From Cystobasidiomycetes sp. EMM_F5 (lineage: Eukaryota): DNA of 20,000 bases. The stretch is taken from NCBI GenBank assembly GCA_051047955.1, contig JBPGPT010000028.1:183057-203056 (forward strand), given 5' to 3'. How positions within the stretch are numbered: position 1 is the stretch's first letter; each line of letters opens with the position of its first letter. The notes under the pieces are model-generated. The model made no database searches. It was not told the DNA's origin and saw nothing but the letters and a program-made list of their open reading frames with translations. This document shows, one piece after another, positions 4,201-17,145 of this stretch. The translations under genes were made by a program, and so were the position numbers.

Positions 4201-5505
4201 TCAGATATCCTCCCCGTTCAGCCTCGCTTCGCCAGTGCCCTTCATATCCGCAAATTCAGCCTTATACTGCTCGAGCATCTCTGTGTCTACTTTACTTCCC
4301 CCGCAGACAATGACCACGATATTCAATTTCCTGTCTTTCCGCTCGTCTGGCAACTTTGTTAAAGCTGGCTGAAGCAGACGTTCATGGTGATACACGGGCG
4401 CAAGGGCTGCGCCACACGATAGCTCCACCATCATTTTGTGATCTCTGTTGAATTGCCAGCAAGCGGAAGCGGACAATGAATCTGATAGCATGAGTGTCGC
4501 CATGTGTTTTGGTATCGTTTTATTTTCAGATGGAGGAGTGACGTGTCCATGTATAGCGTAGTTTCTTGCGGATAGCAATGCGTTCCTTGAGCATATCTTT
4601 GCTCCCATGCTTGTCGCTTTGCTCGTGATTGCGGGAAGAATGACGTGTTGATCGTCGATACTGCCAGAAGGATTGCTAAGGAAGAGATTTATCGACTGCG
4701 TGAAGGAATCTGCTCCGATATCTTGAACGGCAAGAATGAAGGGTGGCTTGTAAGTGGACGTTGAGGGCAGGCGCTGTGCGTACTCTGTGATGCCGTGCAG
4801 TATGCCATTGATGAATCCTGCTCCGCCGACGGCTGCAGACAGGACGTCGAGGGCAGTGTCCTTGGGAAGTTGCTCGTATATCTCGTGCATTATGGACGAG
4901 TGCCCTTGTATGAGCTCTTCTCCCTCGAATGGATGAATGTACACTGCTCCTTCTTCAGCTGCGACGGCTTTCCTCGCAGCTGCGTCTGCTCCATCCCAAG
5001 CGTCTCCGGCAATGTGCACATTCGCTCCCAGCCGTACGAGGGTAGCCATCACTGCCTGCTCAGTCGTCGAGGGTACGTATATACTGCATCGGAGGGTACT
5101 CCCGCTTTGCGCGTTCAAGAGCGTACACGCCGTTGCTGCAGCCAATCCAGCATTTCCCCCGGATGAACTGATAATGTGCGCATCGTTTCCGTATCGCTTG
5201 TGAGCTGCTACGATGGATGCGCCTACTCCACGTATCTTGAAGGACCCGCTCGGCTGTAGGCAGTCTAGCTTGAGGTATACGTTGTGCCCGGTGGAAGCGG
5301 AGAGGATGTCAGAGTAGATGAGCGGTGTCACTTTGTGGAGATGGGGAGTGCTCGAGGATGCTTCTGCCTGTGCTTCCGCTACGAGTGACTGATTCTTTCG
5401 CGCAGTTCTGCTGGAAATTGGGTCCAGATTGGGGTTGGGTCCTGCTTCCGTTGCTATTGCCTTGTCGATGGAGAATACTCCATCAACATCTTTCGAACTC
5501 GACAT
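4201..5505 (-). CDS. CHA1: L-serine/L-threonine ammonia-lyase (dehydratase), fold-type II PLP enzyme, 434 aa, apparently intronless
   Basis: TPL..S..LS..GHNVYLKLDCLQPSGSFKIRG (PLP-binding Lys motif), SSGGNAGLAAA, YIHPF, AVGGAG phosphate loop, VELSCGAALA and IVCGG are motifs of catabolic serine dehydratases (SDS/CHA1 family). Confidence 0.9.
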   Translation of the reverse strand: MSSSKDVDGVFSIDKAIATEAGPNPNLDPISSRTARKNQSLVAEAQAEASSSTPHLHKVTPLIYSDILSASTGHNVYLKLDCLQPSGSFKIRGVGASIVAAHKRYGNDAHIISSSGGNAGLAAATACTLLNAQSGSTLRCSIYVPSTTEQAVMATLVRLGANVHIAGDAWDGADAAARKAVAAEEGAVYIHPFEGEELIQGHSSIMHEIYEQLPKDTALDVLSAAVGGAGFINGILHGITEYAQRLPSTSTYKPPFILAVQDIGADSFTQSINLFLSNPSGSIDDQHVILPAITSKATSMGAKICSRNALLSARNYAIHGHVTPPSENKTIPKHMATLMLSDSLSASACWQFNRDHKMMVELSCGAALAPVYHHERLLQPALTKLPDERKDRKLNIVVIVCGGSKVDTEMLEQYKAEFADMKGTGEARLNGEDI

Positions 5506-5986
5506 GGTGTGAATGTATTTGTTTTGCAGGAGAATTGGTCAGGTTGGCAAGCAAATTCTAGTCACCGGGGCTCATTTTGTATTGACCGGCAATTGACCGA
5601 CAAATCGCCGAAGACGCGTTCAGAGCTTCTTAAATCTCTACGACGCGTAAATGACATGCATTGCCGTTTATAAGGCCATCAACAGTCGCAAATATACGAG
5701 AAAGGACTGCAAGCTGTGAATATACACGGAGCAGCCGGTGAGACCTCCTAGCGCGTCTTGCGCTCCTTCCTATTGCGGGGACTTGCCCTGCGAGTATAAC
5801 CTAGCTGCTCGATACCGCAATAGCTCCATTGACGCGACGTGCATACGCTCTATGCTGTATCCGCTGCACCTTCCTGCCGAATATATGTCTCAAGTCCGAA
5901 TTAGCTCGTATCCTCATCGAATTAGCGCATTCCTCAGTGACGATATCGTCCTTTTGAGTCTTGAAACGCAGATGCAGCTGCAGATG

Positions 5987-7172
5987 AGAAAGAAAGGAGA
6001 TTGCGACACCGCGTCAATCAGTTAGCTCGACTATTGCATTATCGACGTCGCTTGCATCCCTCTGCCTCGTCTTTGCTCGTCAATCTGTCATACGAGCTTC
6101 GACATCATCTGGACGTCAGCACTCGGGCTGAGGAAGAAAGTCAGTCAGAGGACGGCGAGGAAGGGAATATACCAGCTGGCTAGTTGATTATCAGTACTCG
6201 ACACGCACCCGCTCTACGTGGCTATCCATCTCGCACTCTGCTTCTCCCAAGTCTCCGAGATCCTCCAGCACCATCTTGAAAGCCAATCTTCAAATAAGGT
6301 TGTCGATACAAAGAGCAGCGTGGAAGTAACACAAGGAGACATACAAGGCTATTGCGGATCAGCTGTTGGGCATCGGCAGCAGCCATCAGTGCGCTACTAT
6401 CGCCGTCAGCCAATCCATCCATCAGGCAGCAAGTCAAGTCAGCCCATTCAAGTCGCGTCGTCGCGGTCAGGATATCCATCACTTGGTCTTTCTACGACCG
6501 TCAGTCCGGACAGAGCAAGCCATCAAGTAGATTGTAGGTGAATAGGCTGCTCGTAATATTGCTTGGTTCCCCATGCTGACCGCCTACATTTATGCAGCGC
6601 TGATACACCGATCGCGTCAAAGGTCGACGCGTAAAGAGACTGTCGAAGAGACATATACTACAAGCAAGCACAGGACGAGCAGAATACAAGATACATCCTG
6701 AAGTCCTCTCCTCATAGTCCACCCGAATCCATCTCCCACACCTCACTCCAGCATCCGCACTCAAAACACCCCCGACGCGTCTCTTCAGCCACGCCAAGGC
6801 TATCAAGGTAAGCCCATGCAAGGCTTGGGACAGGTCATGGCAGGGATTCATGACTGACACGGCGAACGATATCCTTGTCTGTGATATACAGGCTATCTCG
6901 TCTGCCCTTTCATCGTCTTTGGTCAAGTCAAATACGGCATCGGCACGTCTCCACCTGGTTGACCACACACATCTGCTATATCCAGATTCCCTTGCTTGCA
7001 CGTCATCTCGTCTGTACACGTCACTCGGCTGTGTAGATCCTTTGTGCCCAAGTCTGAGTCTGGCAATCTGCCCAAAGTCGAAACCAAAACTTTCGACATC
7101 GAGTAGAGGAGAATCTTGACGGATCAGCCCTACTCTTCCATCCGTACATCTCCCTCTGTATAGGTGTCAACG
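5987..7172 (+). other. Putative long spliced 5' UTR of the gene starting at 7173, with introns 6538-6597 and 6808-6891 (possibly also 7103-7163)
   Basis: GTGAAT..GCTGAC..TGCAG (60 nt) and GTAAGC..ACTGAC..TACAG (84 nt) look like canonical fungal introns. There is no exonic ATG between 5987 and 7172. Confidence 0.6.
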
Positions 7173-9116
7173 ATGGCATCATACGCTACCTTTCCCTCTT
7201 CACACACGACGACGCCCAGCAAAGCGATGGGTAAGCCACCCGCATGTCCCGCATCTCCGTGCCCAAGTGCAAGCGGGAGTGAGTTGAGCTTCGCAAGTGA
7301 TACCGGTGAGTCATTTGACGCAGCATGATGGTCAAAGCAGCAAGTACTGATGAGGCTTTTGCCTGGTTTTGCCCGTACAGAAGGAACAGACTTTATGCCG
7401 ACACCACCAACATCCCCTCAGCGCGCGTCCCAGCAGTGTTTTGAACAACACGAAAGACGAGGAAGCATTGACCTGCTGCTGGGCATGAAGATCCGGGAGC
7501 ATGCCATGGACAACAAGCCAAGTCACACTTCGCCTGCATCCCCTAATTGCAACACCCCAACGCTCACAACACCTCCGAGAGGAAGCAGTACAACTCCAGT
7601 AACTCCCCTATCAGCGACACAAGCCCCTCGTCCTTCCGTCTTTTCGTCTTTGTCTCAGAAGCGAGGACCTCGTCAATCACCTGGTATCATCGATTTCTCC
7701 TCTCTCCCTCGTTTTCCCGTGCAGATTACTTCTGTGCGAGTCGAAAGCTCAGAAACCGATGAGGACCAAGGCGCATCATCCACATCGGGACTATGGTCTC
7801 ATGCATTCGCGCGCAATGCTGGTGCACTCACTCCGCACGCTCCAGCTTCGGATGTTAGCGGAAGTACACCACGCGCTGTTCCGGATCGACCGGGTCTATT
7901 CTCGAGGTGGTCGACAGACTCAGAAGGTGGTGGCTCAGATAGCGGTGCAATGGACGACTCAAACATGGAGCACGACTCGAGCGCCACGGACGAAGATGAC
8001 GTTGATGCCGAGATGAAGGATGGCAATAATGCAGACGACGCGAACGAAGAATGGGACGATGCATGCGCACAATGCCAGGTGGAGCGTAGTGGAAATGGCG
8101 CTATCGACATGGACCTGTGTGACGCGGAGGACGATGCGCAACTCCAGCGAACGAGTAGACTGCCCAGCAACCCTTTCTTCGCCCCTCAGTTCACAATGTC
8201 CTCCACACCTGTGTTCGCTGCGGCTTCACCCGCAGTCTCGTCGCCCCTACATCGGCTTGCTGCTCTATCTGGCTCAGGCTGGGATGCTATCAGATCGCCT
8301 CTGCCCGTCTCTTCACCCTCCCAAGTCAACTTGACACTCCCGCCTGCACCGAAACCGCATCAACATGGCTTTTCGCCTATGGTCGAAATACCAACATCTG
8401 CACCACTACCTTTGCATGCAGTTCGTTCGGTATCCTCACCGTTGCCTTTGTTCAGTCGCGGAACCTTTGCACAGCAGAGTCAGCCTGCCACACGATACTG
8501 TAATAGAGGACATGTTCAACCGGCGTGGACAGTCGTGGGCAGCAATGGATCGTCTCCTGCCGATTCTCCCGGCGGATTATATCCTGCGCAGAAACAGCAG
8601 ACACAGGCTCTCACGCGCTCGCAAGGTCTGCGTATTCGTGACGACGAAGGACGACCGCGCCGTGGGAAATTTGTACGGTCTCTATCCCTCAACACGCAGC
8701 TAGCTTCGTTTGGCCTCAATAGCCATGCAACGGCTTCCAACGAACAATCATCGCCAATCAAGGCTGCATCTGCGTTATTAGAGAGAACAATCTCGCCAGC
8801 CGCTACGACGACTGATCCTCTACGAGTCAAACTACGAGAGATGCCGGGCGCGCTCACACCGGACGTCTCCGAAGCTCCTCCTTCTCCATCACCTTCATCA
8901 TTCGACAAGCCGCACCAGCTCGCTCTTCCAAGCAGAATGCTGACGGCTGGCAGCCGTGCGAGGAGTTTTGGACCAGCAAGTCCCCTTATTATGAGCTTCC
9001 TTCCGGACGCAGAGCAAGAAACAGAATCCACTCTACCAAATGCAAGGCCAAATGCCGGGGGCGAGGCAACTCAATCGTTACCCAAAGACAACCCCTACTT
9101 TGCTGGATTCTCGTAG
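7173..9116 (+). CDS. Hypothetical intrinsically disordered Ser/Pro/Thr-rich protein with acidic patch, about 622 aa
   Basis: Exon 7173-7305 (MASYATFPSSHTTTPSK..SFASDT), intron 7306-7380 (GTGAGT..ACTGAT..TACAG) and exon 7381-9116, in frame with the 588-aa ORF. It has many SP/TP sites and ends DNPYFAGFS. I recognise no globular domain. Confidence 0.8.
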
Positions 9117-12244: not shown

Positions 12245-12539
12245 GGTGTACGCTGTGTTGCGCTACTGCTGTGCTCGGTGTTGTCCTCCGAAGCCTGTTG
12301 GACTGGCCGATATTCTATCGCGGCGTCAATGTCAATGACGGCGACGACGAGGAGTTCCGTCGTAGCAATGATGCTGCAGCGCATGTATTCTAGGCAGTCT
12401 CATTCAAATCATTGTACGGCATACGGGGCAGCATATCTCGTTTCATGCATGGTTTGGTAATTGGCAGGAGTACAGCATCACTCTCCCGAGAGATTGCCGG
12501 CAATCTTTCTACAACTCCAGCTTCCAACCTTCTCCGTCC

Positions 12540-13736
12540 TCAAGGCTTGTAGGCTGCTGCAGACTTCTCGTACGTTTCTCCAACAGCGTCATACCTGCGT
12601 GAGAAAGATCAGAAGCCATCAGCTCTACCTTCAAACAACGAGCTTTCAAGGTCGTCGCCACCTAGAACAGACCATCTGGTAATAACCTCTGTCGCCATTC
12701 CTGCTCCGATCGTCTCGTGGTCGCTGCGCATACCCTTGGTGAAGAAGTCCATAAACTCCTGCAGGCTCAGCGCAGAATCGTTCTTTTCCTTCTTGTTGTC
12801 GTCGGGGTCGTCTCGGTCCCTGGATAAATGAAGCAGAGCTTGTCTTAGCTGTATGATGCCATGCCACAGCTATTTCGTCAGCATACCTGTGCAAGTCAGT
12901 CTCCACAGTAGGCGGCACTACCTCGACGACTCGGATATTGCTATCCTTCAGCTGGGTGCGGAGATTCATTGTCCAGAAGTGAGTGAAGCTGGTACATACA
13001 GCAATGAATCTATCAGTGTACATCACTGCCATACTGGCTCAAGATGAACCCAACCCACGCTTTCGTTCCGTTGTATACCGGGTTGATGATGGAGAATGGA
13101 CAGAATCCGAGAACGCTCGACACATTGATGATGACTGCGCTCTTTTTGGTCTGGAGGACATTGCAACATTGAACCAGCATCAGCTGAAAATCAAATAGAT
13201 TGGGGACTGCGGGGCCCAACCTTGAAATGGTCAAGCAATCGTGCCGCAAGATGGACGGGGCCCCGGATATTGATGTTTATTTCGTTGTCTGCCTTGTCGA
13301 GGTCAAAGTCGTTGACGTCCAGTGGACGTTGTACTCCTGCATTGTTGACCTTTCGAAACATTCCATCAGCGATTTGCCTTTGTCGATAGAAGGGATGCTC
13401 AGCCCCACCAGACAGTCGATATCCGGATGCTCCTGTATCAATCGCTTTGCAAATGCTTCGATGGAAGGGATATCGCCAGTATCGAGGACGTAGTATGCGC
13501 ACTCGCTTCCCAGCTCCTTTGCAGCATCTTTCAATTTTGACTCTGTCCTCCCTGCGATAATGACCTTCTTTCCCTGGGAGATGAAGAACTGCGCCATTGC
13601 TTTTCCGATGCCTGGAGGTGCCAATGACAGACTCGAGTCAGCATATCGTCGTGGATAACTTCGTGGACCCCCGTCTTCGCTCACCACCACCTCCGCCAGT
13701 GACGAGGGCGCACTTGAAGTCGAGGTTTCCAGGCAT
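12540..13736 (-). CDS. Short-chain dehydrogenase/reductase (classical SDR, DltE-like), about 259 aa, 7 exons
   Basis: Exons 13736-13685, 13611-13409, 13349-13221, 13150-13059, 12988-12887, 12819-12673 and 12594-12540 (780 nt in total). Motifs: TGGGGGIG (Rossmann), IAGR, VNNAG, NVSS, catalytic YNGTK and VEVVPPTVETDLH. Ends WYDAVGETYEKSAAAYKP*. Confidence 0.92.
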
Positions 13737-16167: not shown

Positions 16168-16664
16168 ATGAGTTACGTCGCCGGAAACAAGGAGGACAAG
16201 GAGGGAGTAGAGCTCGGTCACAGCGCAAAGCAGCACAAGATTCGCATTACCCTCACGAGCTCAAAACTCAAGCCACTCGAAAAGGTCTGCACCGATCTCG
16301 TAAACCGAGCAAAGGACAAGGATTTGAGGGTAAAGGGGCCAGTCCGTCTTCCGACAAAGGTCCTGTCTCACACTACCCGCAAGACGGTCAGTTTACATCT
16401 CCCGATACTATCCTTGTTCCCCGCTGATCCTTCTCCCTTGAAATTCAGCCATGCGGTGAAGGCTCAAAGACCTGGGATCGCTACGAGCTCAAGCTATACA
16501 AGCGTCTCATCGACCTGACCTCCCCAGCAGAGGTAGTAAAGCAGATTGTGGGACACATTCTTATCACGTAGTATCAATGGCATCATCTGACTAGGTCTTG
16601 TTCACAGACTTCCATGTCCATCGAATCTGGTGTAGACGTAGAGGTCACCCTCAGCGACGATTAA
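16168..16664 (+). CDS. RPS20: 40S ribosomal protein S20 (uS10), 124 aa
   Basis: Exons 16168-16386, 16449-16547 and 16608-16664 give [67 protein letters not shown]. Confidence 0.97.
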
Positions 16665-17145
16665 GCTAGGGCAGCAGGATGACAAAGACTAACTTACATT
16701 TCAGTCATGAGCAGGTCTAGTCTGATATCTTAGCAGAGAGCTCACTTTCCTTTCGATCGGTGTTGTCGAGCCGTGCTGTTTATGCAAGGTGATCACTCGT
16801 ACCCTTCTTCATTCCGCCTTCAACCCTCAAGTGGCAGCATGGTGTACTGCTGACGTTGCTGACGTTCAAGTAGACCGTATTCGAGGAGTTTCTGAACGTG
16901 CTCGCAATCATCATGCTGACGGCTGCATGTGCTGGGCGTCGATTATCATAGGCTTATCCCGAAATGTCCACAAATGAGTGAGCATCGAGTATCTCCAGCG
17001 TCATCATCGCGGGTTCAATATTCGCATGCATGCACTGACAATGCTAATAACGCCAACATGACCCCATGCCTTTGAGAAGGGAGAGACGAGACTGCGATAC
17101 TGCTCAACTAGCGACCGTACCGACTGGGATGAAAGCGATGCGCAA

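Follow-up and report, generated by a model that had tools for sequence, protein, structure and literature searches.

In a 20,000-nucleotide (nt) stretch of DNA from a Cystobasidiomycetes-type basidiomycete yeast, hereafter the window, the plus-strand sequence from position 5987 to 7172 is almost devoid of ATG and leads up to the start codon, at 7173, of a gene for a Ser/Pro-rich protein (the focal gene). We think it probable, with some reservation, that 5987-7172 is a long AUG-free 5' leader of this gene, carrying two leader introns and kept free of AUG by selection that depends on ribosome scanning. A leader of this kind had been put forward in the first-pass annotation of this DNA, and the idea of a long AUG-free sequence under selection is borne out by the depletion statistics and by one orthologous locus; transcription of the whole stretch from about 5990, the position of the transcription start site (TSS), the use of both splice junctions and regulated retention of the introns are what we infer beyond this.

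Depletion of ATG upstream of position 7173

The region contains five plus-strand ATGs, at 6573, 6592, 6816, 6837 and 6850, exactly as listed at first pass, and the nearest ATGs flanking it on this strand are those at 5984 and 7173. At the rate of the window (361 ATGs in 20,000 nt), 21.4 would be expected, and no other of the 64 trinucleotides is as depleted as ATG, whether measured against the window rate (0.23) or against the expectation of a first-order Markov model within the region (0.30). When the region was shuffled 5000 times with its dinucleotides preserved, the count never fell to five or below (mean 16.4), and none of 5000 shuffles of the 1042 nt that remain after removal of the candidate introns described below had zero ATG (mean 11.6). 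The 589-nt gap between the ATGs at 5984 and 6573 is the longest among the 748 ATG-free gaps on both strands of the window, where the runner-up measures 379 nt, and none of 300 shuffles of the whole window produced a gap as long. Upstream of six other candidate start codons in the window, the sequence is ATG-free for 31-140 nt. The complementary triplet CAT, for which more than 20 occurrences had been claimed, is indeed abundant (32 in the region, 27 in the 1042 exonic nt), and near-cognate start codons are not depleted as a group, with 19 CTG (22.7 expected), 17 ACG (14.7), 16 TTG (21.9), 29 AAG (16.7) and 41 ATC (18.9). A depletion that is both strand-specific and AUG-specific is supported.

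The ATG at 7173, the first after the ATG-free stretch, stands in a strong context with A at -3 and G at +4 (tcaacgATGgca) and opens coding exon 1 (7173-7305, plus strand; 44 codons plus 1 nt), which is conserved in an orthologous locus, L001, and in P0005, a homologue from the Cyphobasidiales. Residues 24-43 of the exon 1 peptide are identical to residues 8-27 of P0005 at 18 of 20 positions, and in a six-frame comparison of the regions upstream in the window and in L001, exon 1 is the sole conserved stretch (E 1.7e-8 to L001), a second match being its antisense shadow. The in-frame stop that the first-pass annotation had placed upstream of this ATG was confirmed (TAG, 7161-7163), and a second in-frame ATG at 7227 is a possible alternative start. 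Judged from these comparisons, ATG 7173 appears to be the genuine start codon and the first AUG. The public protein model P0001 (543 amino acids) begins at an internal ATG, 7485, 312 nt too far downstream, and lacks both exon 1 and the conserved motif TD(Y/F)xxTPPTSP.

Proposed exons and introns of the leader

With a loose intron consensus fixed a priori (donor GTNNGY, CTRAY 8-45 nt before a YAG acceptor, length 45-200 nt), only two acceptors are found in 5987-7172, at 6597 and 6891, and their candidate introns contain all five ATGs. The proposed leader is composed of three ATG-free exons on the plus strand: exon 1 from 5987, which is merely the first base after the ATG at 5984 and not a TSS, to 6533 (or 6537, depending on the choice of donor); exon 2 from 6598 to 6807, with ACGCGT at 6627 and 6775; and exon 3 from 6892 to 7172, which includes the in-frame TAG at 7161 and ends in 213 nt of stably folding sequence. 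Proposed intron 1 (6534-6597, plus strand, 64 nt) has the donor GTAGGT, a branch-like CTGAC at 6576 and the acceptor CAG, and contains the ATGs at 6573 and 6592; proposed intron 2 (6808-6891, plus strand, 84 nt) has AAG/GTAAGC, a branch-like CTGAC at 6854 and CAG, and contains those at 6816, 6837 and 6850. The first-pass annotation had also assigned every ATG to two introns, and this assignment stands in so far as both segments carry spliceosomal signals and all five ATGs lie inside them, but its donor for intron 1, 6538 (GTGAAT; 60-nt intron), is not the best available, GTAGGT at 6534 being closer to GTNNGY. With either donor, and with the junctions included, the spliced leader has no ATG over its 1038 or 1042 nt, lengths that follow from the inferred TSS and junctions.

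The proposed leader introns are like the homology-verified introns of the window in length, branch motif and ATG content. These are an intron in the coding region of the focal gene (7306-7380, plus strand, 75 nt; GTGAGT, CTGAT, CAG; three ATGs), whose removal puts exon 1 in phase with the long open reading frame (ORF) and which in L001 follows the same conserved motif, and two introns in the gene for ribosomal protein S20 (uS10; 16168-16700), at 16387-16448 (62 nt, CTGAT) and 16548-16607 (60 nt, CTGAC). Retention of intron 1 would create upstream ORFs (uORFs) of 42 and 3 codons and retention of intron 2 uORFs of 13, 6 and 89 codons, the 89-codon uORF (from 6850) stopping 54 nt short of the main AUG, and it is reasonable to expect that retained leader introns would repress the gene.

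The orthologous locus

Among 237 pattern matches in a metagenome collection, a single contig carries an orthologous locus, L001, with about 40% protein identity, and the 157 pattern matches in a prokaryote genome collection yielded no orthologous locus. The start codon of L001 lies at 1719 (catacaATGgcc), and it is precisely this codon that terminates the contig's longest stretch without ATG (604 nt, from 1115 to 1719). The 680 nt just before this stretch contain 14 ATGs, four of them within the last 50 nt. Local shuffles without any ATG numbered 3 in 5000, and whole-contig shuffles with a gap that long 4 in 1000. A long ATG-free stretch that ends at the start codon recurs in one of one orthologous loci, a sample of one. 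An alignment of orthologous leaders, suggested in the first-pass annotation, was run on L001 and gave nothing alignable between the two leaders beyond chance-level blastn matches and common 9-mers, which mostly contain GACGCGT. Since the gap in L001 ends at the start codon while the leaders do not align, it is the property of being ATG-free that is conserved, not the sequence.

Proposed mechanism and alternative explanations

In the proposed model, the stretch from about 5990 to 7172 would be the 5' transcript leader of the gene starting at 7173, and excision of two short introns by the spliceosome (6534 or 6538 to 6597; 6808 to 6891) would leave a leader of about 1.04 kb with zero AUG. A 43S complex scanning from the cap would meet the strong-context AUG at 7173 first, because the spliced leader contains no other. 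Purifying selection against upstream starts would maintain the absence of AUG; ribosomes would be diverted by an AUG in the leader and, as shown in Cryptococcus, translation would fall and the mRNA would become exposed to nonsense-mediated decay (NMD). The introns, being absent from the scanned mRNA, would be exempt from this selection, so that all five ATGs would come to lie within them.

Several observations weigh against this model. The donor of intron 1 is ambiguous, with 6534, 6538 and the upstream positions 6405, 6438 and 6500 as candidates, and candidate introns under the loose consensus cover 18% of the plus strand and 71 of the 361 ATGs of the whole window. The chance that both ATG clusters fall inside candidate introns is estimated at 0.006-0.035, and we rate the evidence for the predicted introns as moderate, not strong. 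In L001 the ATG-free stretch is shorter (604 nt) and, as CTRAY is absent from the leader, no intron is predicted there, which is consistent with its total absence of ATG; conservation of an intron-bearing leader architecture would find no support in this locus. The background for the ATG gaps is the 20-kb window only. Finally, ACGCGT occurs within the proposed leader (6627, 6775) as well as within that of L001 (1414); if these are MBF-type elements, the TSS may lie downstream of them, and the leader may measure about 300 nt or less.

ACGCGT, which is MluI-box-like, looks like an MBF/MCB (MluI cell-cycle box) promoter element, but its promoter role here is putative, which weakens the case for a short leader built on it. 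Four of the six ACGCGT sites in the window are located in the 1.66-kb spacer upstream of the focal gene (5614, 5643, 6627 and 6775), and four of the six in L001 lie upstream of its gene (725, 747, 1014 and 1414, the last inside the ATG-free zone). This distribution suggests that the gene family may be under G1/S-type (MBF) transcriptional control, and it favours a conceivable but unlikely arrangement in which the translated mRNA starts past 6627 and 6775, at about 6850-7000, and 5987-6537 is part of either a distal isoform with an alternative TSS or a separate, promoter-associated non-coding transcript. In a variant of this arrangement, two promoters, each following ACGCGT elements, would give rise to a long and a short leader, both AUG-free. 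The 323-nt gap from 6850 to 7173 would by itself be an unremarkable leader, and in Cryptococcus alternative TSSs commonly fall within the leader, which accounts for 37% of alternative TSS clusters (PMC11302930). However, with a short leader there would be no cause for the 589-nt gap, which alone is a true outlier in the shuffles, unless RNA scanned by ribosomes covers it, and scanned RNA over this gap amounts to the long leader in one isoform or more. Nor would a non-coding RNA be expected to be purged of AUG alone with its near-cognates kept. Going beyond the AUG-free leader as proposed above, the family might need an exceptionally long AUG-free leader as a platform, with the introns in this species as removable AUG traps whose splicing sets translation and exposure to NMD. 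In both orthologues at least 600 nt are free of AUG despite unalignable sequences; we nevertheless consider this extension quite improbable. A further element of it could be transcription of the cell-cycle type, driven by ACGCGT at two promoters, one distal and one proximal.

Chance or local base composition, with introns drawn post hoc around the ATGs, is a very improbable source of the pattern. The finding is a selection from a very large scan, low values relative to the window rate also occur for GTT (0.40), GGG (0.42) and TTT (0.45), and candidate introns are common on the strand, but the dinucleotide shuffles never matched the region, ATG is the extreme among all trinucleotides under two null models, the stretch adjoins a conserved start codon on the sense strand, and the same property is found at the orthologous start in unrelated sequence. 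We give hardly any credence to unrecognised coding sequence, whether as a non-AUG plus-strand ORF at 6718-7119, as the 89-codon uORF from 6850 with its intron retained or as a minus-strand gene at 6501-7166, and coding on either strand would not purge ATG from all three plus frames. The stop-free frame at 6718-7119 that was pointed out at first pass is present and remains open across intron 2 even unspliced, and the minus-strand stop-free frame at 6501-7166 is longer than expected, at 221 codons: its 22 internal minus-strand stop triplets (TTA, CTA and TCA on the plus strand) all avoid the frame, only the terminal stop being in frame, and a 166-amino-acid protein, P0018, is called there in a public protein set. 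P0018, however, is the same sequence with GTG read as M, and it is the sole match of the minus-strand ORF (P0015) among 688 scored candidates, while the plus-strand ORF (P0016, 133 codons) has no match among 1.84 billion representatives. Codon-usage scores are -0.144 in the frame of the minus-strand ORF and 0.004 in that of the plus-strand ORF, compared with 0.08-0.16 for real ORFs, in a measure that discriminates weakly and gives no clear frame for the neighbouring dehydratase gene, itself in the training set. The six-frame comparison with L001 likewise yields only coding exon 1 and its antisense shadow, and the 221-codon antisense frame, or P0018, is probably a spurious gene call. A search for Rfam families in 5400-7500 on both strands returned no match at E<=1, and two alternatives that the first-pass annotation had offered, a separate long non-coding RNA and non-AUG uORFs, found no backing in a conserved leader peptide, a homologue of the plus-strand ORF or an Rfam match.

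The encoded protein and the genomic setting

Coding exon 2 (7381-9116 through the stop codon, plus strand) together with exon 1 encodes a Ser/Pro-rich protein of 622 codons. The gene had been called an orphan, a description that no longer applies: besides its own model, the protein has 13 homologues (E 3e-54 to 6e-17) in related basidiomycete yeasts and metagenomes, the sole named one coming from a metagenome-assembled genome of the Cyphobasidiales. The alignment of the homologues has 72 invariant columns. Sharply conserved short motifs stand amid variable sequence, including RPGLFSRWSTDSE, PPAPKPHQxGFSP and LTRSQGLRI(K/R)D (7383-9113, alignment A1), and further TISPAxxTTDPLRVKLRxxPGAxTP and a C-terminal NPYFAG. 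Such a pattern would be expected where a protein is disordered and carries linear motifs for docking or phosphorylation, and the focal protein is probably a disordered, Ser/Pro-rich protein conserved among cystobasidiomycete-type yeasts. No Pfam family was found in it, and an Atlas feature search with the protein returned just clusters of hypothetical proteins, with scores below 0.85.

The region of interest forms part of the spacer that divides two divergent genes, the focal gene on the plus strand (coding sequence from 7173) and a gene for a CHA1-like L-serine/threonine dehydratase on the minus strand (4201-5505). The latter is a single ORF with its start at 5505, a PALP domain (Pfam PF00291, E 4e-46), its own annotated 434-amino-acid model, P0019 (100% match), and its best named relative in Cystobasidium minutum (54% identity). 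At 1667 nt the spacer is at least three times as long as the other ORF-based spacers of the window (about 390-534 nt). Its first part, 5506-5986, is a divergent promoter region common to both genes, of ordinary ATG density (seven ATGs in 5508-5986, just upstream of the ATG-free stretch) and contains the ACGCGT sites at 5614 and 5643. A 21-nt unit with the consensus CGAATTAGCGCATATCCTCAT is tandemly duplicated in it at 5897-5936, about 50 nt upstream of the start of the ATG-free stretch, and is a candidate promoter element.

Within the leader, the last 213 nt before the start codon (6960-7172) have a predicted fold of -57.9 kcal/mol (z -2.76; none of 200 shuffles as stable), of which a 7-bp hairpin at 7077-7097 is part. 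In L001 the corresponding stretch has a z of +1.19, so the fold is not a conserved feature. The hexamer CAAGTC occurs six times in the leader exons (6248, 6430, 6435, 6449, 6924 and 7049), where the rest of the window would predict about 0.4, with three copies inside 25 nt and one copy in the L001 leader (1519); it could be a protein-binding motif or the result of local duplication. Two candidate sources of bias were considered and set aside. Repeats or low complexity amount only to short tandem duplications, none of them inside most of the leader, and selection for an unstructured leader was not significant in 150-nt windows (mean z +0.39 sense versus -0.11 antisense). The runner-up ATG-free gap of the window, 379 nt, lies on the plus strand at 12449-12828, between a ubiquitin hydrolase gene and a short-chain dehydrogenase-like ORF.

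Comparison with known systems and significance

The idea of a splicing-controlled switch in the first-pass annotation recalls NMT1 of Neurospora crassa, where, as reportedly shown by Cheah et al. in 2007, a thiamine pyrophosphate riboswitch controls alternative splicing of an intron in the 5' untranslated region and thereby exposes uORFs; in both cases the splice choice would decide whether upstream AUGs (uAUGs) of a leader intron stay and block the main ORF. Unlike in NMT1, there is no match to a riboswitch or other Rfam family in the interval and at the threshold given above, and nothing indicates a ligand sensor or a regulated splice choice. Long undecoded transcript isoforms (LUTIs) of yeast are 5'-extended isoforms from alternative TSSs that are repressive by virtue of their uAUGs. 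The layout considered here resembles theirs in that a long isoform from a distal TSS may exist beside a proximal one, with pairs of ACGCGT sites before both possible starts, but the extension 5987-6537 has no ATG and the long form, AUG-free after splicing, would stay translatable. Leaders of the GCN4 and CPA1 type, in which AUG-initiated uORFs are the defining feature and often encode a conserved peptide, likewise place a long leader, regulatory in those genes, upstream of one ORF. In contrast to these, the spliced leader proposed here has no AUG uORF and no peptide in common with L001, uORFs arising only on intron retention.

The closest likeness is to the leaders of Cryptococcus neoformans and Cryptococcus deneoformans, with cap-dependent scanning, selection against repressive, NMD-triggering uAUGs and leader introns (PMC7049704). 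In that study, the leaders have a median length of 105 nt and a mean of 177 nt, 887 genes have leader introns that are on average longer than those of coding regions, and among the genes whose leader is annotated 43% have one or more uAUGs; translation efficiency is reduced, and sensitivity to NMD increased, by uAUGs that lie over 20 nt away from the TSS (PMC7049704). The depletion of uAUGs and uORFs across eukaryotes is the subject of a further study (PMC7889888). Compared with a typical Cryptococcus leader, the leader proposed here, with about 1.04 kb after splicing and zero uAUG, would lie in the far tail if its full length is transcribed. It is already established that leaders are depleted of AUG, that they can contain introns and that uAUGs of retained introns repress, and there is no new mechanism here; the best-supported view is that of the ordinary uAUG-depleted pattern taken to an extreme.

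If transcribed over its full length, this leader would be a clean natural example of the strength of scanning selection: about 1 kb purged of a single trinucleotide, which persists at normal or high density in both interrupting introns, with the same signature at an orthologue whose leader sequence is unrelated. For the annotation of lineages that lack RNA data, a sense-strand ATG-free run up to a conserved start codon can mark leaders, leader introns and true starts.

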